A stretch of DNA of 64,000 nucleotides from an uncultured Ignavibacteriales bacterium (lineage in GTDB: Bacteria > Zixibacteria > MSB-5A5 > GN15 > FEB-12). The translations under genes were made by a program, and so were the position numbers. Positions 4,353 through 64,000 of the stretch are shown piece after piece (position 1 is the stretch's first letter; the number at the start of each line of letters is the position of its first letter). Where the stretch lies: NCBI GenBank assembly GCA_964612145.1, contig CAZTBP010000013.1, positions 1 through 64,000 of the forward strand, written 5' to 3'. The notes beneath the pieces are model-generated. The model was not told the DNA's origin. It saw only the letters and a program-made list of their open reading frames with translations, and did not search any database.

Positions 4353-4370
4353 ATAAGGGAAACGATCGCT

Positions 4371-6740: not shown

Positions 6741-7937
6741 ATGAAGTACTTACGGGTCTTCGCCCTGTTCTGTCTGGTTCTTTCATACGCTGGATGCGGT
6801 GGTCCTAAAACGCTACGAGCACCAGTTCCTTATGAAAGTCAGAACGAATATACCGTCGATGATGTCATCACGGAAATGGTAACTGAAGCCTGCAGTCGCT
6901 TGCAGACAGAAGGGGCTAAAGGGAGGGTTGCTCTCCTGGACTGCTACAGTGCGTCGGGCAAATCTACCTCCTTGGAGGGCCGCATAAGTAATGTTCTTCT
7001 CGCAAAGTTTAGTGAATGTGCTACATCCGGAAGAACTTCTTTTAGCATTGTTCAGCCTCAAGTTATCGCATCCAATATGGCAGCACTTGATCTGTCGGCT
7101 CGAGCCGCGAATATCAAAAATAACGCTGACACGTGGAAGAGACTGGGGGTCCAAATGGTGGCCTCATGTCGTTGGCTACCGAATCCAAACGAGTCAATCA
7201 AGGTAATCTTTGAGTTTTTCGATGTAAGTTCGGGCGGACGACAAATTTTCACTATTGAGAGAACTCTGGAAAAAGATGACGATCTTCGAAAACTGCTCGG
7301 TGAAAAATTGCCCGGAATGCTCATAGTCGAATCGGAAACCGCCGGGTCGAGGGTGTACGTCGACGGCGAATTTAAGGGCGAGATAACTTCTGATCCGATA
7401 TCATTTGAAGTTCCCTACGGTACACACAGTCTCCGAATTGACCGGTCAGGGCACAAGTCCTTCTCTAAGAGTGTGACGATCGAAGAACGAGAGTCAGAAT
7501 ACCTGAAGGTGAAATTCACGCAGTCGCATCTGGCTCCAATGAATTCCGCCCTCTTGAGTGCGTTACTACCCGGCCTAGCATTGGCGGTCTATGGTCCGGA
7601 AGCTAAGGACAACGTTGCTTCGGCTTCTCACGGCATCGCAGCGGCGTTATTCTACACGGCTGCAATTTGCTGGGTGGTAGATGAAAGCAAAGACGATCCA
7701 TTCTTGACGCGCGACAATGACGACCGGTATAAAACTATCAAGAATATTGAGTTGTACACAGCGCTTGGCGCATATGTGGGCAATATAATTACTGGTTGGT
7801 TCGTTGGTAACGAGTACCGGAAGGAAACAAAAAGGGGGGTAGAGATCATGGCTCAAGAAATTCCGGACAGGCTGATCTTCTATGCAGATCGTAGCCACAA
7901 CGGCGACATGATTTTGAAGGTTGGCCTTAAATTCTAA
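6741..7937 (+). CDS. Lipoprotein with a PEGA domain and a C-terminal hydrophobic region
   Basis: Start at 6741 gives MKYLRVFALFCLVLSYAGCGG, a lipobox. The PEGA motif is LIVESETAGSRVYVDGEFKGEITSDPISFEVPYGTHSLRIDRSGHKSF. TM-like segments follow near aa 300-400 (LLSALLPGLALAVYG, AAALFYTAAICWVV). The 150-nt upstream extension in the ORF track has no support. Confidence 0.55.
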   Translation: MKYLRVFALFCLVLSYAGCGGPKTLRAPVPYESQNEYTVDDVITEMVTEACSRLQTEGAKGRVALLDCYSASGKSTSLEGRISNVLLAKFSECATSGRTSFSIVQPQVIASNMAALDLSARAANIKNNADTWKRLGVQMVASCRWLPNPNESIKVIFEFFDVSSGGRQIFTIERTLEKDDDLRKLLGEKLPGMLIVESETAGSRVYVDGEFKGEITSDPISFEVPYGTHSLRIDRSGHKSFSKSVTIEERESEYLKVKFTQSHLAPMNSALLSALLPGLALAVYGPEAKDNVASASHGIAAALFYTAAICWVVDESKDDPFLTRDNDDRYKTIKNIELYTALGAYVGNIITGWFVGNEYRKETKRGVEIMAQEIPDRLIFYADRSHNGDMILKVGLKF

Positions 7938-7954
7938 AAAAGTAGGTATCAGTA

Positions 7955-8323
7955 ATGAAACACATAGCTCTATTATTGGTATTGGCTCTGATGGCGAGTT
8001 TTCAAGGCTGTGCGAGTATCTTGTCTTCAGACACAGAGGTAGTTGGAGTGGCTAGATTGGAAGGTGCTCCTAGCAATGGTCATGGCGGGATACTTATCAG
8101 TAATGGACACGTAAGCGCCATTTCAGCATCAGACGGTACATTCACCCTATCGGGTCAGGTTCTCAAAGACACTGATTTCGATGTTATATTCTCAAAAGAC
8201 GGATACATATCTCAGGTGGTCAATATCTTCATCGATTATGCACCGGGAGATGATTCGGATGAGGACGATGGTCCCCTCGTAGTAGATGTTGGTACTGTTA
8301 CCTTGCCCTTGCAAAGTAAGTGA
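7955..8323 (+). CDS. Small lipoprotein with a carboxypeptidase-regulatory-like beta-sandwich domain
   Basis: Lipobox MASFQGCAS. The motif GILISNGHVSAISASDGTFTLSGQV resembles CarbopepD_reg. Confidence 0.45.
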   Translation: MKHIALLLVLALMASFQGCASILSSDTEVVGVARLEGAPSNGHGGILISNGHVSAISASDGTFTLSGQVLKDTDFDVIFSKDGYISQVVNIFIDYAPGDDSDEDDGPLVVDVGTVTLPLQSK

Positions 8324-8385
8324 TACTTACGATCTGTGGCATTCAATAGTATTGGTGAAGAGTCAGCTATAATTGGATATCTCCC

Positions 8386-9234
8386 ATGGAGCCAGTAATT
8401 AAGGACCAAGTTCGGTCATGGTCGCAGTTGAGTGCTATTCTGCAGGACGCTCGAGGGGTAGTAGATGCGGCCGGTATGAAGATGTTTTCAAATGGATACT
8501 TTCGTCCCGGGGATTTCAGTGAATTCGTTGTTGGAGCGGACCTTTTTTGTCTCGTTGGTTGGCCGATCAGTCTCCACTTGAATAGTGCGGTTGAGACTAC
8601 CGAGAAGTTTCTCAGGGCAAGTGAGAGTATCGAAAATACAGCTGGTCTAAGAAATGTATTAGCTAATTCGGTCATTCAGAGGTCCAAGGACGAGGATTCG
8701 GGTATTTTAGTGCATTGGAAGTTCATTGTGAATTCAGACAAGAAGTACTATAAGGACCGATATCGACGATACCCCGATGGCGGCTTCCTCCATACAGTCG
8801 ACACGCTTCTGTGGGAAACACACTGCCTATCAATGTGGGCATTGTCATTTTGGTATGATATCGCAGGAGCAGTACCTTCTGGCGACGCAGATCGTATAGC
8901 TGAAATCACCGACCGTCTTCTGGCCCTGATCAATGATCTTTTTCCAGACAAAGTCATCCAGGAAGACGATTCTCTCTTTGGCCTTGGTTTTGACGCTATA
9001 GACTCAGAGTTTATAATGTCAGCACTGGAAGAACACTACACTGGGAAGTCAGCACGGAAGCAGACTACTGAAGCCATGGGAAACTCTCCAACGAGTTCTT
9101 TGACCGAGGCTGAGTGGCTACAGGCAAGCGTAGGAACGTGGCGTGTTGATGGAAGATCAATTGAAGGTACTAAGTTGATGGTAATGCCGCTCTCACAGCT
9201 CGTAAAGTGGGTAGATATTCGAATTGACGGCTGA
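8386..9234 (+). CDS. Hypothetical protein (282 aa)
   Basis: Long ORF with no recognisable motif. It lies in the low-GC island. Confidence 0.4.
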   Translation: MEPVIKDQVRSWSQLSAILQDARGVVDAAGMKMFSNGYFRPGDFSEFVVGADLFCLVGWPISLHLNSAVETTEKFLRASESIENTAGLRNVLANSVIQRSKDEDSGILVHWKFIVNSDKKYYKDRYRRYPDGGFLHTVDTLLWETHCLSMWALSFWYDIAGAVPSGDADRIAEITDRLLALINDLFPDKVIQEDDSLFGLGFDAIDSEFIMSALEEHYTGKSARKQTTEAMGNSPTSSLTEAEWLQASVGTWRVDGRSIEGTKLMVMPLSQLVKWVDIRIDG

Positions 9235-9296
9235 AACTATGAGAGGAATCGAATTTTGTTGAGCAGAATTGTCGTATTTGATTCGGAGGTAAACTC

Positions 9297-9641
9297 GTGA
9301 AGTTAATTATCAAACGGGCTCAAGCCGAGCAGAAAGGGCTCTTTGGAGGGCACAAAGGAATGAAATTTACTCTGTCGTGTCAGGTTGACCTATCGGATGA
9401 AGAGAGAGGACTCCTTGAGAAATACAATGTTGAAGAGCATCCGTTGACGTACAGACAGCAAGATGGAGTAGATGTACCGGCTCTCAGAATCGGCGACTTG
9501 GTGCGTGGAAGAACTTACGAGGTAAACGACGTAAGCACGCTGCTCAATAACGAGGAAGTCATCAAGAATGCCTGTCATGACTTCAAAATGTTGTTAGAAG
9601 TTATGCGCTCCTTCGGGGGTGAGGAAGTAGTCGAAATATAA
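9297..9641 (+). CDS. Hypothetical protein (114 aa)
   Basis: ORF with no recognisable motif. It lies in the island cargo. Confidence 0.35.
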   Translation: MKLIIKRAQAEQKGLFGGHKGMKFTLSCQVDLSDEERGLLEKYNVEEHPLTYRQQDGVDVPALRIGDLVRGRTYEVNDVSTLLNNEEVIKNACHDFKMLLEVMRSFGGEEVVEI

Positions 9642-9674
9642 TAAGTGACTATTGAATTTTAGGGAGAGAAAATT

Positions 9675-9821
9675 ATGGCTGAAAAAGAATGTCCCGTATG
9701 TCATTACTCCGGAAAGTGCCCCAAATGTAATGGTAGGGGTGGTGGATTTACGACTGTTTGCTCCACCTGTAAGGGTACTAAGAAGTGTCCCCGTTGTGAC
9801 GGCAAGGGCGTAATCAAGTAA
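9675..9821 (+). CDS. 48-aa DnaJ-type zinc-finger (4 x CxxC, CxxCxGxG) mini-protein. It is not in the supplied ORF track.
   Basis: My own translation gives MAEKECPVCHYSGKCPKCNGRGGGFTTVCSTCKGTKKCPRCDGKGVIK*. The four CxxC units are CPVC, CPKCNGRG, CSTCKGTK and CPRCDGKG, which match the DnaJ cysteine-rich CxxCxGxG repeat. RBS agggagag lies 8 nt upstream. Confidence 0.55.
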   Translation: MAEKECPVCHYSGKCPKCNGRGGGFTTVCSTCKGTKKCPRCDGKGVIK

Positions 9822-9898
9822 GAGTTGGCTTAAATATAGAACATCTCCGGATTGATGGGTCCGCGTCGTAGCACCGGGGACGGACGAAGGAGTTTGAT

Positions 9899-10612
9899 AT
9901 GGATTTGGCCATTTTAAGAATTCATGCTACCAAAGCAGTCGGATCTCTTGTTGCGGGGGGGATTCGTGGCATTGCTTTCTTTGGTATTTTCGGGATGATA
10001 GTGGGAGGCACGATGTTTTTTGTAATTCAGTCCGTGACCAAACACTCCGATGGAGTCGGGAGTTTCATTCTAATGCTTGCTTGGATCGTGGTAGGACTTC
10101 TTCTTGGTGGATTTATCGGCTTCTTCCGGGGCTTACGTGGCGTCTGTCGACAATCACTGGTCAAGAGTCATTGGGTAAACGACGCGTGCGATAGACTATC
10201 ACGGGAGACAATTGGAAGGCTGCGTTCACCCCAGAAGCAGTCGAATCTACAAGTCGAGCTGAAGGAACTGGTCATGACCTGTCAACAGGAACAGGAGTTG
10301 TCAGATCAGCACGTTAAAAAAGATCGAGCCACCGGCGGTGTTGTCAGGCGAATGGTCGAGCGAATCACTGTTCTCCCCCAATTGGCTGTCCGCAAATGCT
10401 TCACCGACCTGATCAACCAAATGTCCGCAAGTATAGAATCTGACGCTGCGCTGTCAGCGCTCGTTGACCGGTTCCCCGAGGAGTTGAAGAGCCGCACGAA
10501 TTCACTTATCGACGCCTGGATTAAACAAATCTTTGCAAGGCCACTAGGAATAGCATACGTAGTTACTGGATGTGCGGTAGTCCTATTGGCTATCCTGACC
10601 GTCTTGATCTGA
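9899..10612 (+). CDS. Membrane protein, hypothetical (237 aa)
   Basis: Two N-terminal and one C-terminal TM helices. No other motif. Confidence 0.4.
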   Translation: MDLAILRIHATKAVGSLVAGGIRGIAFFGIFGMIVGGTMFFVIQSVTKHSDGVGSFILMLAWIVVGLLLGGFIGFFRGLRGVCRQSLVKSHWVNDACDRLSRETIGRLRSPQKQSNLQVELKELVMTCQQEQELSDQHVKKDRATGGVVRRMVERITVLPQLAVRKCFTDLINQMSASIESDAALSALVDRFPEELKSRTNSLIDAWIKQIFARPLGIAYVVTGCAVVLLAILTVLI

Positions 10613-10708
10613 TGTTATTTACACTCTCGTTTGTGCAATATTCCTAAGCAGCATTTAAGGTCCATAAAGGTACCAACACCCATATATATAGACACCAATT
10701 TGTGAATT

Positions 10709-11821
10709 CTAAACTTCTCCACCCCCTTCTTCAAACGGCAGTTTCTCCACCGCATTCGCCAGGTGATCCGGGCCGAGGTGGGCGTAGATCATGGTCGTTT
10801 CTATATCCGAGTGGCCCATCAGCTTCTGAACCGTTGGGAGATCGACGCCCTGCATTACCAAGTGGCTCGCGAACGTGTGGCGAAGCGTATGGACTTTCGT
10901 GAACTCCCCGATCTCGGCCTTCTTGGCGATTTTAATGAGCTCCATCCGGAGATAGTTGTGCATGTTCTTCCCTGACGACTTCACCGGAAAGACATAATCG
11001 TTCTTCGAACGGCCGTCTCGCTTCCGATGCAAGTCGGTAAGGAGCTTCAGGAGGCCATCGCTGATCGGGATGTCCCTCTCCCCCGTCTTCGGCCGCCAGT
11101 CCTTCTTCCGACGGATACTGATCTGTCGCCGCTCAAGATCGATATCGGCCCAGGTGAGATTCTCAAGCTCCGCTTTCCGCATGCCTGTATGAAGAAATGT
11201 ATAGTAGATCGGGTAGAGATTCGGCGGGCAGACGTCAAGGAACCTCCTGCATTCATTGACGGACAGAAATCGAGGCGTCTGATTTTCATCTACCTTCAGC
11301 TTCGCCACACCCTTGGTCGGATTCTCTCGAATGTATCCCCACTTGATCGCCAGGTTGAAAATTAGCCGAAGCGTATCGAGCTCAAAATTCACTGTACGCG
11401 ACTTGGCCACCTTGGGCGACCTACCCCCATTGGCATCTTCCTCGACGGCAGGACTACCGCCGTTGGCGTTCTTCCGAAACACCTTGTACTTGTCGATGAC
11501 CTCGGTCGAGACATCGGAAACATATCTGACCTTCGGCGAGGACTGGAGGAACTCCCGGAAATGATCAATCACCGCCCGATAACGGTCTGTCGTCGTCTTA
11601 CGGTGAGTAGCCTGGCTGTACTCAAGGTAGGAATCAAGAAAGTCGGTCAGCGGCATCTTGGCCTGGCCAAAACCATGCTCTTCTTTGGCAATCTTGACCT
11701 CGGCTTCCTTGAGAGCCAGCTCGGCCACTTTCTTCACCGGCCCGATTCGTCGGCGCACCCTGCGCCCATCGACCCGAATATCAAGATACCAGACTTTGCC
11801 GCGCTTATAGATTTCGCCCAT
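10709..11821 (-). CDS. int: Tyrosine site-specific recombinase / phage-type integrase
   Basis: C-terminal catalytic box [39 protein letters not shown] (R...HxxR...Y). An N-terminal SAM-like/AP2 region is present. The gene sits immediately 3' of tRNA-Leu. Confidence 0.9.
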
Positions 11822-11931
11822 ATCGACGTCTCCCCTTGGTCACAAGTTGGTCACAGCCCTGTTTTCCAAGAAGGAACGAAAGACTTAAGTCGTTGTCAAG
11901 TGGGAAGTTGAATCGGAGGGGAAAATCTAAA

Positions 11932-12015
11932 TGCCGAAGGGGGGATTCGAACCCCCACATCCTTACGGATACTGCGCCCTGAACGCAGCGCGTCTACCTG
12001 TTTCACCACTTCGGC
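11932..12015 (-). tRNA. tRNA-Leu (anticodon CAG), class II with a long variable arm
   Basis: Reverse complement reads GCCGAAGTGGTGAAACAGGTAGACGCGCTGCGTTCAGGGCGCAGTATCCGTAAGGATGTGGGGGTTCGAATCCCCCCTTCGGCA. The acceptor stem is GCCGAAG/CTTCGGC. The anticodon stem-loop is CTGCG-TTCAGGG-CGCAG. The T-arm is GGGGGTTCGAATCCCCC. Confidence 0.85.
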
Positions 12016-12164
12016 ATTCATAACGACTCCGGGGAAACACCGCAATTGCTGCCAATCACGCCCTTCCCTCGGGCCGCCGAGGCCGGTGAACCGCCTCGGT
12101 AGTCGCCAATATATACGCTCTGGCTCGTAACGCAACAGCAATTTTCAAGGCCGGAACAACAGAT

Positions 12165-24538: not shown

Positions 24539-25342
24539 CTATTTCCCGGTCTGAATCGGTATGATCGCCAGACCGTCGAGAACCTGGAACGTGAATGATT
24601 CAGTAAAATACAGCCGGACCTTGTCCGCATCGGCAGAATTGAACCCGATCGACATGTCAACCCCCAACGTCAGCTTCATGTCTCCGCCCCTCACCGATAC
24701 CAGCATCGATTCTTCCAGCGATGGATTCAAAATGATCGAACTGTCAAGCAGGCGCTCCAGGTGCCGCGTCAGCGGATAGCCGCCGTTGTGGGCCGCAACA
24801 TCACGCCACAACTTGCTCCCGGCTATCAAGCGATACGGTCCCTCGACACCCGCTTTCATAAACTCGGTGATCCCGTCAGATACGGCATTGAGCAGCTTGT
24901 TCGCGTCACCAGATACCTTGATCGGCTTGTGGTCCGCACTGTCTTTCAGGCCGGTGATGTTGCCGTCCGCCAGCCCCTGGTAAATCGCCTTCTCCTCAAA
25001 CAAGGCTATCTTCCGTGCCGCTTCCTCCAGCGGCCCAAGATCGATATCCTCGGCTCCCCGGGCGGCATTATCCAGTTCCCAGACATCGAGATCAAACAAC
25101 ACCCGCGCCTCGACCAGCGGCTGCACGGTCCGAATACCGTAATCCACATCGCTCTTCGACTTGCCCTTGGCAACATCCAGCCGCCCCAGCGGCACTGCCG
25201 AAAAATCCCAGCCCTTGGGACCATCGACATCGACAAACTTCCGCGCCGAAAGACTCGCCGAAAGAATCTGTGTCGCCACCTCATTGATCTCGTCCCATGC
25301 TTCGGCGCCGATCGGCGCCAGCTTCTGTTTCAGTATATCCAT
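24539..25342 (-). CDS. Family 1 encapsulin nanocompartment shell protein (linocin M18-like)
   Basis: N-terminus MDILKQKLAPIGAEAWDEINEVATQILSASLSARKFVDVDGPKGWDFSAVPLGRL parallels T. maritima encapsulin ([20 protein letters not shown]...[21 protein letters not shown]). 267 aa. Confidence 0.85.
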   Translation of the reverse strand: MDILKQKLAPIGAEAWDEINEVATQILSASLSARKFVDVDGPKGWDFSAVPLGRLDVAKGKSKSDVDYGIRTVQPLVEARVLFDLDVWELDNAARGAEDIDLGPLEEAARKIALFEEKAIYQGLADGNITGLKDSADHKPIKVSGDANKLLNAVSDGITEFMKAGVEGPYRLIAGSKLWRDVAAHNGGYPLTRHLERLLDSSIILNPSLEESMLVSVRGGDMKLTLGVDMSIGFNSADADKVRLYFTESFTFQVLDGLAIIPIQTGK

Positions 25343-52996: not shown

Positions 52997-55771
52997 TTAC
53001 CGCACAGTGGCCGGCGTAGTCTGACAATTCAACGGCAGACCACCCCGGAAGAGGAAGTCCACAAAATACGTCAGGTCCGAAACATTAATGCCGCCATCAC
53101 CATTCACATCACCTGCTGTCTGATCCGGTGACGGTCCCCCACGGAACAGGAAGTCGACCAGATACGTGAGATCGGACACATTTGGCCCCTCACCATTCCC
53201 ATCCATATCACCGCAGATAAACGCTGATTCCACTGTGATCGAGATAATTTCTTCATCGATCAAACTGCCGTCATCCGCCACGAACTGAATTCCGCTGTGC
53301 GTGCCCGTATCGCTTTCAGTCGGCGTCCACTCAACCGTGGCCGTGTACCGCAGCAACCCGGCATCCCAGCCGTTCTCGGTCAGCGTCGCACCGGACGGTA
53401 GATTCTCCGTCCAGAACATGACAATGTCGCCGTTCTGGTCGTGGGCAGCAATCTCAAACGTCAGCAGTTGTCCGGCTGCCGCTGTCTGATCCCCAATCGG
53501 GTCGAGCACCGGCGCTACATTGCCCTCGGACACACTAATAGTCACCAGCTCACTATCGGCCAGCGAACCGTCAAAGGCACTGAACAGCACATTATGATCG
53601 CCGACATCACCGGACTGCGGCGTCCAGTTAAAATCGGCCGTCCCATCGCCATTATCGGCAAACGTAGCACCCGCCGGTAACGAATCGACCAGAAGTTGCG
53701 GAACATTACCATCCGGATCGGAGCCCGTTATCGTAAGATTCAGATTATTGTCGACTACGGCGTTCTGCGCCCCTATCGGATCAAGTACCGGTGCCCGATT
53801 CACGTTGTTTACCGTGATCGCCACTATTTCCGTATCCGCCGCCAATGAATCATCCTCGGCGATAAAATACACACTGTACTCACCCGATTGCTCGAACGCC
53901 GGCGTCCAGTCAAACGTCCCGGTCCCATCACCGTTATCAGCAAACGTCGCTCCGTTCGGCAGCGAATCGGCCCGTAGCGTCGGCGTCGTCCCATCAGGAT
54001 CCGTCGCACTGACCGTGAAATTCAACAGGCTGCCCTCGTCGACTGTTTTCGGACCGATCGGATCAATGATCGGCGCCGAATTTCCCGCTATCGGCGTTAC
54101 CGTGACTGTCTGGCTGTTCATCATTTCCGGCGTTGATTTGCCGTTGGCCGCCCAGAGATCATACAGCGTCTGTCCCCAGTGATCGGTCACGTTCTCATCG
54201 CGGAGAAATTCAACATATTCTTTCGTTGTTGTCTGGTAATAGATCGTCACTTCAACCTCGGCAGTCGCTCCCGGAAGCAAATACTCGGTATAGTCCCAAT
54301 ACTGGCCATCGGCATAGGTATAGTCCACCGGCGGCGACTGGATGCTATCAAACGCGGCATTGGTGAATCCTCGCGGGGGAATACGGTTGTCACTGAAGAT
54401 CGTATCGTTCAACACAAAATGGAACCCCGGCCCGGCCGAAAAACCGACCACCGGCGCGAGCGTGTTGGACAACCCCGGCTTAATCTCGTAAATCTTTACA
54501 TCGGCATCGCGCGTGAGAACCGCCGTCGAAGTATCGTACGCCCCCGACTCGTACAGCAGCGTCCCCCCGGAACCATACGCCCGCACGTTTATCCAGATCC
54601 GACGGCCTTCGGGGTAACCCGACGGCAACTTGTGGCCGGTCTCGTTGGTCACTTTAACACTGCATCGGTGCTGCGAACCATCCGGCGTCACACTGACATC
54701 GAGCGACGTGGCCAACTGAAGCATCCGCCGAGCCCGGACGATCCCCGAATCAAGCGCATCGGTTGGTGTCTCGCCGGGAAAAACGTCGTCTACAATTCTC
54801 GGTATGAACGTATTGCCGCCGGTCATGTCATGAATCGCCAGATCGTCACGCAATGGCGCATCGTTCTTATCGCAACCGTGACCGGTGGTATCACGCATGT
54901 GACAGTCCTGGCAGCTGCGAACGGTATCGAGATTGCCCCCGAACTGTGGTGCGTACACGCCTTCGAGTGTGTTGTACGCCGATACCTTCCACTCCGAAAA
55001 CGTCCGCTCAATCGGGAACATCGCATACGGATTGGCCGAATCCGGATGCGGCGCATCAAACGTATTCGGAACGTACTTCCCATTGGCATCCTTGCTGAAC
55101 ACCGGATTGCTCACGTCATGACAAGTACCGCAGAGATCCGATTCACTGTGAAACGGCGAATAGAGAAAAGCGTGGCGAGCCACTGTCTCCGCATACGGCC
55201 CGCGTTTGGGATTAGCATCGGAATCAACTACATAGCCGCCGTTGGACTCCCCCTCCGGTATCGCTGTCAATGTCGCCAGGTAAGTCTGATCAAAATTGTA
55301 TGTCGTCGCTGTATAAATCGAGTCATCCGGATACGGGTTCTCACCGACATGAGCCGGCTTCACAGCACGGTGACAGAAATCGCACAAAATCGATTCGCGA
55401 TCGTCTGCCGTTAACGCCGAACCGTCCGTCGGCTCCGAACGCCCTTCCAGCCAACCCTTCGGTGAATGGCACCGAATACACAGATCGCCCGATCCCGGCG
55501 CATCCTGTTCGGCAATCGTCATACAGGCGAAAAACAGCGGATCGCGCGCCGCCTGGGACATCATGCTGCCGCGCCAGTTAAAGCCCGGCTCGACCGGCTG
55601 ATCGTAGCCGCCATGACAGTTTTCACAGCGATCGGGTTTTTCAAGTGTTCCGGATTGGTTCGGCTGTGAACCGGGCAGGAACATATCGTTGATTGTTGTC
55701 GGCGCCTGGGCGAAACTTCCGCTCGCCTGAGTGACAATCAGCCACAAAGCGATTGGTATCAAGCGACGCAT
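52997..55771 (-). CDS. Extracellular multihaem c-type cytochrome (at least 5 CxxCH) fused to three Ig/cadherin-like repeats and a C-terminal tandem dockerin-like module
   Basis: Signal peptide MRRLIPIALWLIVTQASGSFAQA (start 55771, GGAGG RBS). Haem motifs CENCH, CIRCH, CDFCH, CGTCH and CQDCH. Three about 95-aa repeats (APIIDPIGPKTVDEG..., APVLDPIGAQNAVVDNN..., APVLDPIGDQTAAAG...). C-terminus NVSDLTYLVDFLFRGGPSP...DVNGDGGINVSDLTYFVDFLFRGGLPLNC. Confidence 0.8.
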   Translation of the reverse strand: MRRLIPIALWLIVTQASGSFAQAPTTINDMFLPGSQPNQSGTLEKPDRCENCHGGYDQPVEPGFNWRGSMMSQAARDPLFFACMTIAEQDAPGSGDLCIRCHSPKGWLEGRSEPTDGSALTADDRESILCDFCHRAVKPAHVGENPYPDDSIYTATTYNFDQTYLATLTAIPEGESNGGYVVDSDANPKRGPYAETVARHAFLYSPFHSESDLCGTCHDVSNPVFSKDANGKYVPNTFDAPHPDSANPYAMFPIERTFSEWKVSAYNTLEGVYAPQFGGNLDTVRSCQDCHMRDTTGHGCDKNDAPLRDDLAIHDMTGGNTFIPRIVDDVFPGETPTDALDSGIVRARRMLQLATSLDVSVTPDGSQHRCSVKVTNETGHKLPSGYPEGRRIWINVRAYGSGGTLLYESGAYDTSTAVLTRDADVKIYEIKPGLSNTLAPVVGFSAGPGFHFVLNDTIFSDNRIPPRGFTNAAFDSIQSPPVDYTYADGQYWDYTEYLLPGATAEVEVTIYYQTTTKEYVEFLRDENVTDHWGQTLYDLWAANGKSTPEMMNSQTVTVTPIAGNSAPIIDPIGPKTVDEGSLLNFTVSATDPDGTTPTLRADSLPNGATFADNGDGTGTFDWTPAFEQSGEYSVYFIAEDDSLAADTEIVAITVNNVNRAPVLDPIGAQNAVVDNNLNLTITGSDPDGNVPQLLVDSLPAGATFADNGDGTADFNWTPQSGDVGDHNVLFSAFDGSLADSELVTISVSEGNVAPVLDPIGDQTAAAGQLLTFEIAAHDQNGDIVMFWTENLPSGATLTENGWDAGLLRYTATVEWTPTESDTGTHSGIQFVADDGSLIDEEIISITVESAFICGDMDGNGEGPNVSDLTYLVDFLFRGGPSPDQTAGDVNGDGGINVSDLTYFVDFLFRGGLPLNCQTTPATVR

Positions 55772-56125
55772 CTGAAACCTCCGTGTGCCTGACGCCGAAT
55801 ACTCCCCACTGAAACCGACCCAGGCTTTTACCACCGTTACTATTGTCGGCAAGTAGACCGATAAGACTATTTACAATTTAAATAAAGCGGATATATTTAG
55901 CAATGTTTTTTCGATGGCAACCGCACAACTCTTTGCTAAGAACAGTCACCCCCTTATCTTAACTGACACACTTTTCAATCTTGACTAAAAGGTGAAGATT
56001 CTTCATTGTCCGGATAGCTGCCTGATCGAGTAGGCACGAATGAAAACTGGCAGCCTGCAGCCCCGACCGGAGTATTTCGTATATATACACGCCCGTGTGC
56101 CGGGCACCATGTTCTGGGAGATATT

Positions 56126-57577
56126 ATGCACCGCACAATCGCTTTGTCACTGGGGATCCTGATCATTCTCGCATTACTGAATCCCCCGTCCGCACTCGCC
56201 GATGACACTCTGCATGAACTCTACACCGGCGCCGGACAAATGTTGGAGGCCGGCGAGCTTGACAGCGCCCGCGCCCTCTACCTCCGAGTCTATGACTCGG
56301 ACCCACACTATAAAGACGTTCAGGAAAAACTTGCGGAAACATATAAGTTCATTGGAGTCACAGCATATGGTAGCGAGGACCTGGCCGCGGCCATTGCGGC
56401 CTGGGAAACAGCCGCCACCTTCGACCCGGACAACCAGGAGATTGCCGGCTATATCGCCCGCGCCAAGGCCGAACAGCGTGGACTTGCCCGGATCTCCGAT
56501 CGCCCGGCCGATGCCGTATCACCACCATCTCCCGATACCGAGCCAACCGACAATACACTTCAGGAGATGATCGACAGTATCAGCGTTCTCGTGAAAATGT
56601 TTGAATCCAAACCCGAAGCCGACGACGTCGTCGACTGGTCTGACCGGATATCCCTGAGCGGCTTTATCGATGCTGTCCACTACGGGGACTGGAATACGAA
56701 TGTGAACAGCTTCGAAGCAAGTACCGTCGAACTCGACATCGCCGCACAGCTCTCAGACAACGCCTCGGCCCGGGTCGACCTCGATTACGGACCCGGCAAC
56801 CTGACCGACTACGACGTCCGGATCGAACAGGCGTATGCCTCGTTTGTTACCGGCGAATCCATCGTCTGGGATTTCACCTTCGGCCGCTTCAACGCCCCGA
56901 TGGGCCTGGAATCAATCGACGCCGCCGATCGAGCCTTCTTCAGCCGCTCGGCTCTTTCCGGCGCCGCTACACCCGACAATCTGACCGGCCTGATGATAAC
57001 CGCAACGCTGTCCCCCCATGTCCTGCTGTCCGCTGTCGCGGCCAATGGCTGGGACCGCAATACCGATAACAACAGCGATAAGTCCTTCGGCGGACGACTC
57101 TCCTTTATCGCCACTACCTTTGCCTCCGGTAACATCGCGGCCCTCTACGGCCCCGAACAAGACGACATCAACAGCTTCAAACGGCTCGTTATCGACGGTG
57201 ACCTGGTGATCGTACCGGCGCCCGGCTGGTGGTTCGGCGCAGAGATAAACTACGGCAAGGAGACCCAAGCCGCCGGACTCGACGGCGAGGATGCCGAATG
57301 GCGCGGAACTATGCTCTCCGCAGAAACCGCCCTCTCAGAAAGCGTCAGCCTCGCTGCCCGCTTTGACTATCTTGACGATGAACATGGCTTGTTGACCGGC
57401 AACGCTACTTCTTTTTGGGCTATTGCCGTCGCCCCCTCGGTCAACCTGTTCGAATCGCTCGAGTTGCGATTCGAATGGCAAATCGAGACCGCGGATGAGC
57501 CGGTCTACCCTCAGGCCGGTAGCGACCCCAAAGATAGTCGGCACACTACTGCGCTTGAGTTGGTGGCTGTCTTCTAG
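56126..57577 (+). CDS. Outer-membrane beta-barrel protein with an N-terminal TPR-like helical region
   Basis: Signal peptide MHRTIALSLGILIILALLNPPSALA. Alternating amphipathic beta pattern. The C-terminal ...LELVAVF ends with the aromatic residue typical of OMPs. Confidence 0.55.
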   Translation: MHRTIALSLGILIILALLNPPSALADDTLHELYTGAGQMLEAGELDSARALYLRVYDSDPHYKDVQEKLAETYKFIGVTAYGSEDLAAAIAAWETAATFDPDNQEIAGYIARAKAEQRGLARISDRPADAVSPPSPDTEPTDNTLQEMIDSISVLVKMFESKPEADDVVDWSDRISLSGFIDAVHYGDWNTNVNSFEASTVELDIAAQLSDNASARVDLDYGPGNLTDYDVRIEQAYASFVTGESIVWDFTFGRFNAPMGLESIDAADRAFFSRSALSGAATPDNLTGLMITATLSPHVLLSAVAANGWDRNTDNNSDKSFGGRLSFIATTFASGNIAALYGPEQDDINSFKRLVIDGDLVIVPAPGWWFGAEINYGKETQAAGLDGEDAEWRGTMLSAETALSESVSLAARFDYLDDEHGLLTGNATSFWAIAVAPSVNLFESLELRFEWQIETADEPVYPQAGSDPKDSRHTTALELVAVF

Positions 57578-58839: not shown

Positions 58840-58907
58840 GTATCAAAACCCGGTCCGTCGGTACCCCGATTCGACCAACACTAAGAACACTATCAAGCCC
58901 GATACTT

Positions 58908-58943
58908 AATCACAAACATAGACATGTGACAATGTTTGTGATT
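58908..58943. promoter_or_regulatory. Perfect 12-bp inverted repeat (AATCACAAACAT-N12-ATGTTTGTGATT), a candidate operator. It is followed by the palindrome ATTACGTAAT. A third TCACAAACA copy lies at about 58975.
   Basis: Read directly from the AT-rich intergenic region between the AI-2E transporter gene and the FeS/NrfD/cytochrome operon. Confidence 0.4.
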
Positions 58944-59098
58944 ACGTAATAGGTTAAACATAAACAACTTCCATAGTCACAAACAATCGCGGCACAGACC
59001 TGCTTGTGCTTTTTATCACTAAATTCATCCGATTTGCCTTGACAATTCAGCCTATTGATGGTAAATTTAATCCACAATTGATATTTTTTCGTAGTTTA

Positions 59099-59114
59099 TG
59101 TGAATTTTTTCACA
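59099..59114. promoter_or_regulatory. CRP/FNR-family binding site TGTGA-N6-TCACA. It sits within a perfect 10-bp IR TTTATGTGAA-tttt-TTCACATAAA (59095..59118).
   Basis: Exact match to the CRP-type half-site consensus. It is centred about 57 bp upstream of the ATG at 59164. An upstream TTGACA-N17-TAAATT lies at 59039..59067. Confidence 0.5.
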
Positions 59115-59163
59115 TAAAATGCCGTATTAGTAAATGTAGGAAACGTTAACTGAGGATAAAAAC

Positions 59164-60063
59164 ATGGCTCTGACCAGACGAAACTTCCTCGGACTCGCCG
59201 CAGCCGGCTCTACCGCCCTGCTGACCGGAAGCAACGCTGCCGGCAGTTCCGAAGAGCCGTTCGACTGCCGCGAAAGCTACGCGGTGCTGGTCGATACTGT
59301 CAACTGCATTGGCTGCCGGAAATGCGAAGCCGCCTGTAGCCGGCAGAACAAACTGAACGCCGGGTCGGAATCCTCTTTTGAAGATAAATCAGTCCTCAAC
59401 CAGCATCGCCGCCCCCACGAAGACGCCTATACTGTCGTCAACCGCTTCAGCAGTCCGGACCACCCCGACAAGTCCTGGACCATGAAAGTCCAGTGCATGC
59501 ACTGTAATCAACCGGCCTGCGTCTCAGCCTGTATCGTAGGGGCGCTCACAAAAACCGAAAACGGACCGGTTGTCTACGACGCCTGGAAATGCATCGGCTG
59601 TCGTTACTGCATGATCGCCTGCCCCTTCCAGATCCCAGCCTACCAGTATCACAACGCACTGGATCCGCAGATCCGCAAATGCACATTCTGCGCCGACCGG
59701 CTCGCCGAGGGCCAGACCCCGGCCTGCGTGAGCATCTGCCCCAACGAAGCGATGATATTCGGGCAGCGTGAGCGCCTGATTGCCGCCGCCCGCGCCCGGA
59801 TCAAGACTTTCCCCGACCGCTACGTGGACCATATCTACGGCGAACATGAAATCGGCGGGACCGCCTGGATGTACCTCGCCCCGATCGACTTCGCCAATAC
59901 CGAACTGCCCAAACTGCCGGTGGAACCGATTCCGGAACGGACCGAGAAAATCCAGCACGGCATTTTCAAGTCCTTTGTACCACCGCTGGCCCTCTACGGC
60001 CTGCTGGGCCTGATCATGCACTCTCTGCGTGACAAACCCGAGGGCGAGGAGGTAGAATCATGA
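59164..60063 (+). CDS. TAT-exported 4Fe-4S ferredoxin-type subunit (NrfC/PsrB/HybA-like electron-transfer subunit)
   Basis: Twin-arginine signal MALTRRNFLGLAAAGSTALLTGSNAAG. Multiple CxxCxxCxxxCP clusters (CIGCRKCEAAC, CMHCNQPACVSAC, CIGCRYCMIACP, CTFCADR...CVSICP). Confidence 0.85.
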   Translation: MALTRRNFLGLAAAGSTALLTGSNAAGSSEEPFDCRESYAVLVDTVNCIGCRKCEAACSRQNKLNAGSESSFEDKSVLNQHRRPHEDAYTVVNRFSSPDHPDKSWTMKVQCMHCNQPACVSACIVGALTKTENGPVVYDAWKCIGCRYCMIACPFQIPAYQYHNALDPQIRKCTFCADRLAEGQTPACVSICPNEAMIFGQRERLIAAARARIKTFPDRYVDHIYGEHEIGGTAWMYLAPIDFANTELPKLPVEPIPERTEKIQHGIFKSFVPPLALYGLLGLIMHSLRDKPEGEEVES

Positions 60064-61334
60064 GCAGCACCCATGTCCACGAAATCCCCGTCCCGATTCG
60101 CACCAAGTTCTTCACCACCGGGACCAAAATTATCTTCGGCGTCATGCTCCTGGGTGTCGCCGCCTATATCTACCGGCTGATTGTCGGCCTGGGCGCTGCC
60201 ACCAACCTCAACGATCAGTACCCCTGGGGGATCTGGATCGCTATTGATGTCGCCTCCGGCGTAGCTTTAGCCGCCGGCGGGTTCACAACCGCAGCCCTGG
60301 CTGATATCTTCCATAAAGAACGCTACCACGTCATCACCCGCCCGGCGCTGCTCACCGCCATGCTCGGCTACACCTTCGTCGTGATCGGCCTGCTGGCCGA
60401 CCTCGGCCGCTACTACAATGTCTGGCACCCCATCATGCCGTCGATGTGGCAGGGCAACTCGGTTCTGTTCGAAGTCGGCCTGTGCGTGATGATCTACCTC
60501 AGCGTCCTCTACATCGAATTCCTCCCCATTATCGTCGAGAAATTCAAGGGCCACGTCAACCTGCCCAAGGGCCTTTCATTCCTCAACCGTGTTATTGAGT
60601 CATGGCTCCACACTGCGCATCAGTTCCTCGGCCGGTTCATCTCCATTTTTATCATCGCCGGCGTAGTACTCTCATGCCTCCACCAGTCCTCGCTGGGTAC
60701 CCTGATGGTTATCGCCCCGACCAAACTCCACCCGCTCTGGTACACCCCCATCTCGCCCCTGCTGTTCTTGCTCTCGGCGATCGCCGTTGGATTCCCGATG
60801 GTCATATTTGAGTCGATTCTCGCCTCGAAATCATTCAAGCTCAAACCCGAAACCGGCATCCTCTCATCTATCGCCCGCTATACGCCGGTCATCCTCGGAA
60901 TCTATTTTGCCATCAAGATCGGCGATATCACCCTGCGCGATGCCTGGCCGTACGTCTGGGCGTTCTCGACCGAATCAATCTTCTGGCACATCGAAATGAT
61001 AGCCGGTGTTCTCCTGCCGGTCGTCATCCTCGCCAGCCCGACCCGGCGCAAATCAATCAAGTGGCTCTTCACCGGCGCCTCGCTGGTCGTCTTTGGAGTG
61101 ATCCTCAACCGGATCAACGTCTTCCTGATCGGTTATGAACCACTCTATCCCAACGGCGGCTACTTCCCATCGATTTTCGAGATCGCCGTCACCCTCGGCC
61201 TCGGTGCCGGCCTGATCCTCGTCTACCGCTGGATCGTCATGACCTTCCCGATCATCTCGGTCCCGACAGACGAGTCCAAACACCCGGTCAGAACTAAACC
61301 CATCGGAAAGCCGACCTACACTGGGACCAAATAA
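60060..61334 (+). CDS. NrfD/PsrC-family polytopic membrane quinol-interacting subunit
   Basis: About 10 TM helices. Length 424 aa. The start overlaps the FeS gene stop (ATGA). This is the typical partner of NrfC-like FeS proteins. Confidence 0.75.
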   Translation: MSSTHVHEIPVPIRTKFFTTGTKIIFGVMLLGVAAYIYRLIVGLGAATNLNDQYPWGIWIAIDVASGVALAAGGFTTAALADIFHKERYHVITRPALLTAMLGYTFVVIGLLADLGRYYNVWHPIMPSMWQGNSVLFEVGLCVMIYLSVLYIEFLPIIVEKFKGHVNLPKGLSFLNRVIESWLHTAHQFLGRFISIFIIAGVVLSCLHQSSLGTLMVIAPTKLHPLWYTPISPLLFLLSAIAVGFPMVIFESILASKSFKLKPETGILSSIARYTPVILGIYFAIKIGDITLRDAWPYVWAFSTESIFWHIEMIAGVLLPVVILASPTRRKSIKWLFTGASLVVFGVILNRINVFLIGYEPLYPNGGYFPSIFEIAVTLGLGAGLILVYRWIVMTFPIISVPTDESKHPVRTKPIGKPTYTGTK

Positions 61335-61335
61335 G

Positions 61336-62493
61336 ATGAAATACACAGCATACATATTCACGTTCGGTTTGACACTCGCGTTGAGCATGATTGGCCCGAT
61401 ATCCGGCTCAAGCACCCAAGACGCGATCCAGGAAGCCACCCACCTGGACTGCTCCCAATGCCACGACTGCCAAGAACCAACACCCGAAGACCCCTGCCTG
61501 AAAGCCTGCCCGACCCATTCCATGACGCGGCAGACCGCCAGCCACGGACTCACCGAGGCCCCGGATAGACTGCTGCTTGACAAGTTGGCCGAACAGTACA
61601 AGCCGGTGTCGTTTAACCATAAACTCCACGCCGAGATGGCCGAAATGGGCTCCGACTGCGCCACCTGTCACCACTACAGTCCGCCGGGACAAATCCCGCC
61701 GTGCGCCGAGTGCCACGACAGTGAGACCAACTCAACCAATCTTCGGCAGCCAAGCCTCAAAGGAGCCTATCACCGCCAGTGCCTCTCCTGCCACCGGGAA
61801 TGGAGCCATGACACCAAGTGCGTCGTCTGCCACCTCCCCGCCGACTTAGCGTCTGCCTCCGCCCAGGACTACGACACCACCGACATCATAGGCGTGCCGC
61901 ACCCGGTCATCCAGGAACCGACCAAAAAGGTCTACCGCACTCCCTACGAACAGGCCCCGATCGTCACCTTCTACCATGAAGAACATATCCACCTCTTTGA
62001 TTTAACCTGCGCCAACTGCCATAAGCAGGAGAATTGCAGCTACTGCCACGACCTGCAGAGAGAATCGCGTACGTCCAAAACGCAGGAAGAAATCCACGCC
62101 ATGTGCGACGGCTGCCACGAAACCGACAACTGCGCCAAATGTCATGACACCAAGCAACGTCCCGGCTTCACCCACTCTGCCTCAGCCTGGACCAAAACCG
62201 AGTACCACCAAGACCTCCCCTGCAGAGGCTGCCACCCGACCGGGAAAAAGATCGGGCATATCGACGGCAACTGCGCCTCCTGCCACGCCGGCTGGAATCC
62301 CGACAACTTCAATCACGCCGTGACCGGATTCCAGCTCGATGAATACCACGTCGAGTTCGACTGCGAGTATTGCCATACAAACCTCGCTTTCACCGAAACA
62401 CCCGACTGCTCCAACTGCCACGACGACGAGCGGACTCACGAGGACGCTCCTCCGGGATACGAAATCGAACCGCTGCAGGCTCACTCAAATTAG
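61336..62493 (+). CDS. Periplasmic multihaem cytochrome c with 13 CxxCH motifs
   Basis: Signal peptide MKYTAYIFTFGLTLALSMIGPISG. CxxCH motifs: CSQCH, CATCH, CAECH, CLSCH, CVVCH, CANCH, CSYCH, CDGCH, CAKCH, CRGCH, CASCH, CEYCH, CSNCH. Confidence 0.85.
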   Translation: MKYTAYIFTFGLTLALSMIGPISGSSTQDAIQEATHLDCSQCHDCQEPTPEDPCLKACPTHSMTRQTASHGLTEAPDRLLLDKLAEQYKPVSFNHKLHAEMAEMGSDCATCHHYSPPGQIPPCAECHDSETNSTNLRQPSLKGAYHRQCLSCHREWSHDTKCVVCHLPADLASASAQDYDTTDIIGVPHPVIQEPTKKVYRTPYEQAPIVTFYHEEHIHLFDLTCANCHKQENCSYCHDLQRESRTSKTQEEIHAMCDGCHETDNCAKCHDTKQRPGFTHSASAWTKTEYHQDLPCRGCHPTGKKIGHIDGNCASCHAGWNPDNFNHAVTGFQLDEYHVEFDCEYCHTNLAFTETPDCSNCHDDERTHEDAPPGYEIEPLQAHSN

Positions 62494-62523
62494 CACACGC
62501 GTTTCCTACAACGTGCGCTTGGC

Positions 62524-62560
62524 GGGCCCCTCGAGACTACCCGAGGGGCCCTTCTCTTTT
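62524..62560 (+). terminator. Strong intrinsic terminator after the cytochrome operon
   Basis: GGGCCCCTCG-agactac-CGAGGGGCCC followed by TTCTCTTTT. Confidence 0.8.
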
Positions 62561-62618
62561 CAGGCGTGAACTTCCCGACGCAAATTCCTGTTCCGATTGC
62601 CAAAGGAGGCCGTGCCAG

Positions 62619-63190: not shown

Positions 63191-64000
63191 TTACGGACAC
63201 GGTACCGGCGGCGGACCACCCCTGAAGAGATAGTCGACCAGCGCCGTCAGATCTGAGACATTGACCGTCCCATCACCGTTGACGTCCGCTTCCGGCAGAC
63301 ACGGTGGTGTCGGACCGCCTCGGAAGAGGTAATCGACCAGATTTGTAAGATCAGAGACGTTAAGTGTCCCGTCATGATTAGCGTCTCCCCGCAGTACACA
63401 GCAGGAGGCCCGTGGCACATGCACCAAATACCCATACCCGTTCGTTTCACTGCTGTGAGCTTCGGCCGAATCGACCATGCCGTTAGTCGGATCACTGGTA
63501 CCACTATTCGTCGTCACCCAGCGATCCCAGACATCCGGACTCGCATTATCAAACTGGAACCGGAATGGACTGAAAATAGCGTTCGTGCAGGTCGGATCCC
63601 ACCACGAGACATACCAGTCCGTGCCAACCTTATGGACCGCATGTGTCCAGCCGACCGGCTCAACCCAGTTACTATAATTGCCGGCAATACTGTCATGCGT
63701 GCGAACGTGGAAATCACACCGTCCCGTACCACCGCCCGGCGTCACATCATACCAGTACGTCGGCGGATGCGTAGGATTAGTTCCGCCCTGCGGCTCACAT
63801 TCAACCTTATCAGCCGTGTCCGGGCATATCACCAGGGCCGCCTCGATCACCGGGTATACAACTCCGCCGCCCCACGGCGCGTAGTCGGTACCCCGGTTCA
63901 TCCCGAGGAAATTGCCGAGGATATTCGCATTGTACGGGTAATTGATCACCTCCACCGGACCGGTCATACCCGGCAGCGTCATCACCTGGCACTGATACGG
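63191..64000 (-). CDS. Secreted protein with a C-terminal tandem dockerin-like module. The N-terminus may run off the window end.
   Basis: C-terminus GDANHDGTLNVSDLTNLVDYLFRGGPTPPCLPEADVNGDGTVNVSDLTALVDYLFRGGPPPVPCP. The reading frame is open to the window edge. Confidence 0.6.
   Translation of the reverse strand, partial: PYQCQVMTLPGMTGPVEVINYPYNANILGNFLGMNRGTDYAPWGGGVVYPVIEAALVICPDTADKVECEPQGGTNPTHPPTYWYDVTPGGGTGRCDFHVRTHDSIAGNYSNWVEPVGWTHAVHKVGTDWYVSWWDPTCTNAIFSPFRFQFDNASPDVWDRWVTTNSGTSDPTNGMVDSAEAHSSETNGYGYLVHVPRASCCVLRGDANHDGTLNVSDLTNLVDYLFRGGPTPPCLPEADVNGDGTVNVSDLTALVDYLFRGGPPPVPCP

Follow-up and report, generated by a model that had tools for sequence, protein, structure and literature searches.

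The 64-kb window analysed here, the whole of a 64,000-nucleotide stretch of contig CAZTBP010000013.1 from an uncultured bacterium of the candidate phylum Zixibacteria, carries near its downstream end a three-gene operon encoding an iron-sulfur (FeS) protein, an NrfD-type membrane protein and a 13-haem cytochrome c. We propose that the three proteins probably form a periplasm-facing respiratory complex between the menaquinone pool and periplasmic redox partners, with electrons flowing outward and expression gated by the repressor Rex. Judged by sequence, the module appears to be a three-subunit, stripped-down variant of the Hmc/Nhc/HybAB class and a functional analogue of the Geobacter Cbc4 complex. 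It is a widely conserved, real respiratory cassette, whose logic will not surprise a specialist. Zixibacteria are abundant in sediments and aquifers and are uncultivated; to our knowledge, their respiration is known from gene inventories alone. The three-gene module is among the most widely conserved respiratory cassettes in the genomes sampled.

Architecture of the operon

The three open reading frames (ORFs) lie on the + strand (Table 1). The FeS and NrfD genes share an ATGA overlap at their junction (..TCATGAGC..), the NrfD and cytochrome genes are separated by a 1-nt gap (TAA-G-ATG), and no fourth ORF is found in the leader or between the genes. Upstream, a scan located a promoter-like element at 59039-59067, TTGACA-17-TAAATT with a TG upstream of the -10, and GAGG-like motifs stand at the place of the Shine-Dalgarno sequence in most related loci. 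Downstream, a terminator begins 30 nt past the cytochrome gene; its stem (62524-62551) has 10 bp, nine of them GC pairs, with a T-rich tail on the 3′ side. An earlier reading of this DNA from its letters alone, here the sequence-only reading, had described three translationally coupled genes with ATGA and 1-nt spacings, bracketed by a promoter region with an exact TGTGA-N6-TCACA site and a strong terminator. Our reading of ORFs and junctions confirms the first part of that description, and the scans confirm the second.

The first gene product bears a twin-arginine motif, TRRNFL, and a single C-terminal transmembrane (TM) helix at residues 267-285. Its 16 ligand cysteines fall into four motifs (CX2CX2CX3C, CX2CX4CX3C, CX2CX2CX3C and CX2CX11CX3C) and are thus enough for four [4Fe-4S] clusters. 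With the twin-arginine motif, they bear out the earlier description of a 4x[4Fe-4S] protein exported by twin-arginine translocation (TAT). The protein matches Pfam Fer4_11, and its top match in the PDB is FdnH (1.7e-38). For subunit assignment we used the curated models of NCBIfam with their bit-score cut-offs. The FeS protein scored best against HmcB (341 bits, cut-off 420), and reached 250 bits against HybA (cut-off 263), 112 against DsrO (cut-off 200), 105 against DmsB (cut-off 214), 91 against NrfC (cut-off 378), 87 against TtrB (cut-off 416) and 64 against QrcC. HybA of E. coli K-12 aligns with it over the full length at 34% identity.

The second gene product matches Pfam NrfD (E 2.6e-20) and has about ten hydrophobic segments by hydropathy, in agreement with the NrfD-type membrane subunit of the sequence-only reading; it carries no redox cofactor motif. 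Among NCBIfam models, HybB ranked first (340 bits, cut-off 450) and HmcC second (305 bits, cut-off 550), with QrcD at 101 bits (cut-off 570). No match was reported to the NrfD, PsrC or TtrC models, and a PDB sequence search returned no match at E <= 0.01. HybB of E. coli K-12 is 31% identical over the full length, and its residues R89, Y99, E148 and H184 are conserved here as R94, Y104, E153 and H208. Replacing any of these four HybB residues lowers the activity of hydrogenase-2 (Hyd-2), according to Lubek et al. 2019 as summarised in PMC8076601. The ten helices fit the HybB/NhcC/QrcD/ActC subgroup of NrfD-like proteins and not the eight-helix NrfD/PsrC/DmsC subgroup (subgroups as in PMC8076601).

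The third gene product, which has a Sec-type signal or anchor, contains 13 CXXCH motifs. Across 115 aligned homologues, 12 of the 13 motifs are fully invariant and the second cysteine of the fifth is at least 90% conserved, which confirms the 13-haem cytochrome c predicted earlier. Fourteen histidines outside the motifs are also invariant in the alignment, enough for bis-His ligation of every haem. The protein matches Pfam Cytochrom_CIII and Cytochrome_C7, and among solved structures its only relatives are two Desulfovibrio proteins, HmcA with 16 haems and NhcA with nine. The likeness is confined to residues ~69-167, which align with the c3-like domain at the C-terminus of both (E about 1e-15; 30-35% identity over ~116 residues). 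A fold search with an AlphaFold2 model again pointed to HmcA and NhcA, and suggested a likeness to the poly-c7 cytochrome GSU1996 as well. The NCBIfam HmcA model gave 56 bits (cut-off 400), in a match limited to residues 108-166, and the 9HemeCytC model 39 bits (cut-off 640); none of the 29 members of the cytochrome family that were tested reached a curated family cut-off.

Directly after haem motif 1 (61468-61509), the cytochrome has three extra cysteines, C45, C54 and C58, in the pattern CxxCHxC-x8-CxxxCP. All three are invariant in the 115 homologues. Such a triad might form a disulfide, ligate haem through cysteine or contact the FeS subunit.

From their export signals, Sec for the cytochrome and TAT with a C-terminal anchor for the FeS protein, both are predicted to face the periplasm, seated on the NrfD-type subunit, which lacks cofactors and keeps the functional residues of HybB.

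Distribution and gene order

Homologues of the cytochrome number more than 700, and the named ones come almost all from Zixibacteria. A scan of one genome per species found a relative in 190 species-level genomes, and the best 80 of these supplied the related loci (designated L001 and so on) that we compared with the window. The 80 are mostly Zixibacteria, including the original RBG-1 and metagenome-assembled genomes labelled Ignavibacteria; a few belong to Holophagae or Acidobacteria, Calditrichia, Eisenbacteria and Deferrimicrobium. The order FeS-NrfD-cytochrome, with the genes immediately adjacent, recurs in ~70 of the 80 loci.

Clustering of the flanking ORFs in the 80 loci revealed no other gene conserved in more than 10 of them, and tblastn with E. 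coli HybO and HybC found no [NiFe] hydrogenase in the window or the 80 loci. Genes for a molybdopterin, NrfA-type catalytic or cytoplasmic subunit are likewise missing near the operon. Because the cassette has no other conserved neighbour and no hydrogenase subunit in the window or the loci, we regard it as self-contained.

The same results bear on a different view, in which the FeS and NrfD proteins serve as membrane module to an enzyme with its catalytic subunit gene elsewhere, either a Hyd-2-like hydrogenase or a molybdoenzyme of the Psr, Ttr or Dms type, and the cytochrome is an accessory. The scores of the HybA and HybB models, close to their thresholds, and the full-length alignments with the E. 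coli proteins speak for such a module. The missing HybO/HybC homologues and conserved neighbours speak against it, as does the cytochrome gene, which is translationally coupled and co-conserved in ~70 loci and so occupies the place of the catalytic or peripheral partner. Low scores against Nrf, Ttr, Dms and Arr models oppose it too. We consider this view extremely unlikely.

In one locus (L042, 4734-7083), and probably also in L050, the 13-haem cytochrome gene is tandemly duplicated. The duplicated gene of L042 follows a more divergent FeS/NrfD pair, whose NrfD protein is ~37% identical to that of the window, and the TGTGAA operator described below is still present there.

A conserved palindrome upstream of the FeS gene

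The palindrome TGTGAATTTTTTCACA, at 59099-59114, is the sole match with up to one mismatch in the window, and its 12-base core, TGTGAA-N4-TTCACA, gave 0 matches in 100 shuffles. For the related loci, we counted sites in the 400 nt that precede the FeS gene, using the 70 species that have the orthologous region, and took the expected number from composition-matched shuffles of these upstream regions. An exact TGTGA-N6-TCACA is present in 43 of the 70 species, against 0.03 expected. All but two of the exact sites (41 of 43) are found no more than 100 nt from the start codon, and their usual first base is ~65 nt ahead of the ATG. With one or two mismatches tolerated at the homologous position, the count grows to ~50 loci. 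When the window and related loci were scanned together (~1 Mb in total), the exact core occurred 38 times, always upstream of the FeS gene and nowhere else.

Conservation extends beyond the pattern that was searched for. Position 6 of the operator is A in 41 of 41 sites and position 11 is T in 37 of 41, both outside the search pattern; the central four bases and the flanks vary freely, with T in 27/41 and A in 19/41 at the bases just outside the core. The family consensus is (T/A)TGTGAA-wwww-TTCACA(A/T), and the 18-nt site of the window, ATGTGAATTTTTTCACAT, differs from TTGTGAA-N4-TTCACAA by two outer mismatches. By this pattern of conservation, the palindrome is evidently a genuine operator.

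An inverted repeat in a leader could instead act in RNA, as a 5′-leader hairpin serving mRNA stability, translation or an RNA-binding protein. A transcript from the predicted promoter would contain the palindrome at about +25 to +40; as RNA, the copy in the window folds as a hairpin of 10 bp, and the whole leader reaches -17.9 kcal/mol (z = -2.1). However, neither half-site varies among 41 species and compensatory changes are lacking, whereas loop and flanks are variable, a pattern that marks recognition of DNA by a protein. In the ~8 loci whose -10 hexamer or spacer coincides in part with the site, a transcript would include no more than a portion of it, and an Rfam search of the leader returned a chance snoRNA match only. 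A role in RNA is therefore very unlikely, and we treat the palindrome as a protein-binding site.

Promoter geometry and the identity of the regulator

Alignment of the four closest intergenic regions left three conserved islands only: CTTGACA, ATGGTA...TCCA and the palindrome. Among the 41 operator-bearing loci, a TTGACA-like hexamer (at least 5/6) stands ~60-63 nt upstream of the operator in 22, or in 29 over slightly wider offsets, and the best-scoring promoter ends 30-35 nt before the palindrome in ~17. A promoter upstream of the operator with ~31 nt between them is present in roughly 17-27 loci. In ~8 loci the palindrome overlaps the promoter: the -10 hexamer lies within its central bases in L008, L044, L045 and L073, and the palindrome fills the spacer in L071. 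No enrichment of -10-like hexamers was seen downstream of the operator in the 41 loci. The best promoters, lying upstream of the site or overlapping it, do not place it at an activator position (about -41.5 or -61.5). A site at about +25 to +40 or on the promoter has the geometry of a repressor, and not that of a class I or class II activator.

As a separate observation, in the window and about 27 related loci the end of the -10 hexamer stands a nearly constant distance of about 30-35 nt from the operator, although the sequence between them is unconserved.

Both the extended consensus and the position recall Rex. The Rex operator consensus is given as TTGTGAA-N4-TTCACAA (PMC5355995; PMC5317091, quoting Ravcheev et al. 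2012), and L001, L020 and L062 carry sites identical to the core, TGTGAAATATTTCACA, of the operator that was crystallised with Rex (PMC8376106). In Streptomyces avermitilis, footprinted Rex operators lie between the -35 and -10 elements of rex, nuoA1 and atpI, and downstream of the transcription start at cydA1 (-3 to +25) and wblE (+108 to +135) (PMC5355995). The same Rex also binds half-sites that include TTGTGGA, one of them spanning a transcription start (PMC5355995). By analogy, the TCCACAA box at the predicted start in the window, whose reverse complement is TTGTGGA, is a possible auxiliary Rex half-site. Rex operators of Gram-positive bacteria, Desulfovibrio and Caldithrix share with the present sites the palindrome, a place in or just downstream of the promoter, and respiratory targets (PMC5355995, PMC8376106, PMC5317091, PMC4045070). 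The present sites differ in that the outer T and A of the 18-mer are weakly kept, the distance of ~31 nt from the -10 hexamer is unusually constant, and no cognate rex gene was found in the window or loci. Caldithrix abyssi, a cultivated relative of Zixibacteria in the FCB group, has a Rex with the same operator type (PMC5317091). No report in the literature that we searched links such a complex or a Rex site to Zixibacteria.

The sequence-only reading had placed the operon under CRP/FNR control. The site itself is upheld by its frequency in the related species; the family named is probably wrong, as A6, T11 and the position relative to the promoter fit Rex. Under CRP/FNR control, the palindrome would bind CRP, HcpR or a similar protein, and the operon would be activated by cyclic AMP, oxygen, nitric oxide or another signal. 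TGTGA-N6-TCACA is indeed also the core of the E. coli CRP site, matched exactly in the window, and regulators of this family are widespread and able to repress as well. There is also a precedent in Desulfovibrio, where TTGTGA-N6-TCACAA sites over the -10 of sat and apsAB, with the identical consensus, were first assigned to the CRP/FNR-like HcpR (PMC545781). That precedent was later revised: sat, qmo and other energy genes were placed in the Rex regulon, the repressor-type sites upstream of sat among them, and sat is upregulated in a rex mutant (PMC4045070). The predicted Desulfovibrio Rex regulon also includes the NrfD-type qrcABCD and dsrMKJOP (PMC4045070).

Three points oppose a CRP/FNR-family regulator here. 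A6 and T11 are as conserved as the core, which is characteristic of Rex operators; in the E. coli CRP consensus, A and T at positions 6 and 11 are not characteristic. The best promoter precedes the site or contains it, and -10-like hexamers are not enriched downstream of the site. Lastly, no gene with a cNMP-binding or HTH_Crp domain was found in the window or loci; Pfam scans of ~45 window ORFs showed neither domain, and did show sigma factors, a Ser/Thr kinase and similar proteins. On the strength of the extended consensus and the position downstream of or inside the predicted promoter, we prefer a Rex-type regulator. Rex is probably the protein that binds the conserved palindrome, a CRP/FNR-family protein is a doubtful candidate, and some other regulator takes what likelihood is left. 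More generally, TGTGA-N6-TCACA by itself is no sufficient ground for naming CRP/FNR as the regulator: Rex-type and CRP-type sites are told apart by the extended half-site and by where the site stands relative to the promoter.

Proposed electron flow and its direction

In the proposed mechanism, a quinone/quinol site would lie in the ten-helix, HybB-like NrfD-type subunit and would probably be proton-coupled. Electrons would pass between this site, the four [4Fe-4S] clusters of the FeS subunit and the 13 haems of the cytochrome, which are probably bis-His ligated and of low potential and would form a chain. Uptake or release of protons is probably coupled to this transfer, as in other NrfD-type modules (PMC8076601). 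Transcription would start from the sigma-70-type promoter at 59039-59067 and be gated by the 16-18 bp palindrome (59098-59115) in the early transcribed region, most likely through binding of Rex as an NADH/NAD+-sensing repressor. Accumulation of NADH would then relieve repression, and electrons would be drained from menaquinol to periplasmic acceptors. The quinol:cytochrome electron conduit put forward earlier is a reasonable functional reading. Gene content, cofactor motifs, export signals, homologies and the conservation of both operon and operator are observed directly in the sequences, whereas we infer which way the electrons flow, that protons are coupled to the flow, which redox partners take part and which regulator binds.

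Outward flow, from menaquinol to the periplasm, is favoured because no periplasmic donor enzyme is linked to the operon and because a Rex-type switch, if the regulator is rightly assigned, would turn it on at high NADH. The quinol oxidase cyd of Streptomyces is under Rex control in this way (PMC5355995).

A number of observations weigh against a Rex-gated, outward-directed complex. The direction is not fixed by sequence; the homologous Hyd-2, Nhc and Qrc, classed as quinone reductases (PMC8076601), mainly reduce quinone. Data on Hmc point outward, its cytoplasmic partner being unknown (PMC4215793). Rex is reportedly absent from most Gram-negative bacteria (PMC8376106), and tblastn searches with Rex of B. 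subtilis and CRP of E. coli matched no Rex or CRP/FNR gene in the window or 84 related loci. Promoters throughout are consensus-scan predictions with unmapped start sites, and a spacing of ~31 nt is not needed by a simple roadblock repressor. The AlphaFold2 model of the cytochrome is of moderate confidence (predicted local distance difference test score 71, predicted template modelling score 0.43), so that its domain-level matches alone are usable. The exact operator is missing from 27 of the 70 orthologous loci, some of which have near-matches, and four loci (L024, L070, L075 and L078) have a different palindrome, TTGCG-N6-CGCAA, at the same place, for example CTTGCGCGATATCGCAAG in L070.

The four loci belong to a sub-clade that lacks the TGTGAA operator, and their palindrome stands ~40-70 nt ahead of the FeS start codon, which suggests that the operator or its regulator has been replaced there.

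In the reverse direction, which is possible though less likely, menaquinone would be reduced by periplasmic donors, with small cytochromes delivering electrons from H2 or formate, or outer-membrane cytochromes those from Fe(II). The closest characterised homologues, HybAB of Hyd-2 and NhcABCD, a TpIc3:quinone oxidoreductase, are classed among quinone reductases (PMC8076601); the Nhc-like complex of D. piger is important for the use of H2 (PMC4215793); and for the RBG-1 Zixibacterium, Fe(II) oxidation by way of an Mtr-like system has been proposed (PMC3903129). Set against this, no gene for a periplasmic hydrogenase or formate dehydrogenase lies near the operon in any of the 80 loci, and the only RBG-1 hydrogenase in the main text of the genome paper is of the cytoplasmic Mvh/Hdr type (PMC3903129). 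A Rex-type operator, if the assignment of the regulator is right, also implies induction at high NADH, which fits an outlet better. NrfD-type modules are reversible in principle, and both directions may be used.

A further idea starts from the cytochrome itself, a family conserved across Zixibacteria that lacks a curated model. Its cysteine triad could provide His/Cys ligation or a redox-active thiol, as in DsrJ and TsdA, and the complex could itself be an NADH-gated terminal enzyme, acting for example on a sulfur compound. If so, the fixed 31-nt spacing between promoter and operator might reflect an unusual mechanism involving Rex and RNA polymerase. We regard this idea as improbable. For the outward-directed complex that we prefer, the cassette together with its footprinted promoter and operator offers a testable hypothesis: a link between menaquinone and the periplasm under reductive (high NADH) stress.

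Comparison with known systems

The sequence-only reading had noted that the operon matches NrfABCD, alternative complex III (ACIII) and Psr inexactly, and this holds, as the model scores are low and a catalytic subunit is lacking. That comparison named true non-members and missed the closest kin, HmcB/HybA for the FeS protein, HybB/HmcC for the membrane protein and NhcA/HmcA for the cytochrome, with which the class is a known one. Membership in the Nrf, Psr, Ttr or Dms families was rejected on the low NrfC, TtrB and DmsB scores and the lack of an NrfA or Mo-bisPGD subunit gene.

With Hmc and Nhc of Desulfovibrio, complexes of a type that joins menaquinone and periplasmic cytochromes, the module shares a periplasmic multihaem cytochrome of the c3 family, a periplasmic 4x[4Fe-4S] subunit and a ten-TM NrfD-like subunit; like Nhc, it combines the FeS and NrfD-like subunits with no cytoplasmic subunit. 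Unlike in HmcA (16 haems) or NhcA (9 haems), the cytochrome has 13 haems, a single domain of it is recognisably homologous, and all equivalog cut-offs are missed. Some NhcA proteins of Desulfovibrio are said to have 13 haems, so that the number of haems by itself is not without precedent. Gene order differs as well, being B-C-A here and A-B-C in Hmc and Nhc. NhcD, HmcD, HmcE and HmcF have no counterpart, so that a cytoplasmic module is lacking, and the host is a member of the Zixibacteria and not a sulfate reducer. By these differences the module falls outside Hmc, and outside Nhc as strictly defined; in operation it would resemble Nhc or Cbc4.

The likeness to HybA-HybB of E. coli extends to the TAT signal, the four clusters, the C-terminal anchor, the ten-TM NrfD subunit and the four HybB residues. 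Unlike in Hyd-2, no hydrogenase subunits are encoded nearby, and the 13-haem cytochrome replaces HybOC as the peripheral partner. Cbc4 of Geobacter sulfurreducens (CbcS-CbcT-CbcU) has been proposed to be a menaquinol:periplasmic cytochrome oxidoreductase (bioRxiv 10.1101/2025.04.14.648717). By architecture, it shows the same three-part logic of a c-type cytochrome, a 4x[4Fe-4S] protein and an integral membrane subunit; its CbcS, however, is a membrane-anchored tetrahaem protein of the NapC/NirT type, whereas the cytochrome here is a 13-haem protein of the c3 type. QrcABCD and ACIII likewise combine NrfD-type and FeS subunits with one or more multihaem cytochromes to link quinones with periplasmic cytochromes, but the present module has no molybdopterin-like QrcB or ActB1, no second NrfD-like subunit and no monohaem subunits.

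Table 1. Coordinates of the operon and its predicted signals in the window
Feature	Position	Strand	Basis
-35 hexamer TTGACA of a predicted sigma-70-type promoter	59039..59044	+	Consensus scan; invariant with the 3 closest loci
Extended -10 element TGgTAAATT	59059..59067	+	Consensus scan; ATGGTA invariant in 4 loci
TCCACAA box at the predicted transcription start	59071..59077	+	Conserved in the window, L001 and L081; partly in L005
Putative palindromic operator ATGTGAATTTTTTCACAT, core TGTGAA-N4-TTCACA	59098..59115	.	Window search; conservation across loci
Shine-Dalgarno GAGGA, ATG 7 nt downstream	59152..59156	+	Sequence reading
FeS subunit (299 aa), TAT-exported, periplasmic 4x[4Fe-4S], HybA/HmcB-like	59164..60063	+	Pfam Fer4_11, NCBIfam, motifs
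Membrane subunit (424 aa), 10-TM NrfD-family, HybB/HmcC/NhcC-like	60060..61334	+	Pfam NrfD, NCBIfam, hydropathy
13-haem cytochrome c (385 aa), c3/c7 superfamily, Sec-exported	61336..62493	+	CXXCH motifs, Pfam
Intrinsic terminator, stem then T-rich tail	62524..62561	+	Scan

Neighbouring genes and other features of the window

Upstream of the operon, on the - strand, a gene at 52997-55852 encodes a secreted 951-residue protein with five CXXCH motifs, three immunoglobulin-like (He_PIG/Big_9) repeats and a dockerin-like tandem tail. The sequence-only reading had suggested that this dockerin-tagged cytochrome could carry electrons from the module to extracellular acceptors; synteny lends no support to that suggestion. 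The closest syntenic relative, L005, keeps the order GDPD-UDG-AI-2E transporter-operon-DUF427 and lacks both the dockerin cytochrome and the BBP2 porin beside it, and a homologue of the haem domain was found in none of the 80 loci. We reject the link on these two grounds. The dockerin-tagged cytochrome is a lineage-specific insertion, and its proximity is uninformative on what the operon does. Unrelated proteins of the window, such as that encoded at 63191-63985, have dockerin-like tails too.

The gene for the 951-residue cytochrome is divergent from one for a 483-residue protein with TPR repeats and a BBP2 β-barrel porin (52997-57577 for the two). By comparison with L005, the two genes are an insertion that separates the UDG gene from that for the AI-2E transporter. 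The two proteins could constitute a separate outer-membrane or extracellular electron-transfer unit. On the other side, convergent with the operon, a gene (63191-64000, - strand) whose product has a dockerin type I tail extends past the end of the window; homologues of this gene lie downstream of the operon in L001-L006, with a DUF7901 annotation in L001.

Upstream of the operon promoter, the interval 58903-59010 holds an imperfect palindrome with 22-nt arms (TACTTAATCACAAACATAGACA / TGACAATGTTTGTGATTACGTA). A third copy of TCACAAACA follows at 58974-58985, and then a terminator-like hairpin at 58991-59010. The palindrome, the repeat copy and the hairpin are not conserved in the three closest loci.

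The first 12,016 nt of the window have a low GC content (0.46-0.49, against 0.52-0.61 elsewhere) and the opposite GC skew. This region is bounded by a tRNA-Leu(CAG) gene (11931-12016, - strand) that adjoins a tyrosine integrase gene (10709-11821, - strand), and encodes GrpE-like, Hsp70-like, VWA, PA-IL-like and PEGA-domain proteins. Positions 1-12016 look like a tRNA-integrated genomic island; its proteins gave no match to PADLOC defence models. The rest of the window (12000-64000) has an unusually strong negative GC skew, (G-C)/(G+C), of -0.09 to -0.29 in 2-kb bins over ~50 kb, although its genes are on both strands. Within it, a gene at 24539-25342 on the - strand encodes an encapsulin shell protein (Linocin_M18, E 2.6e-81).

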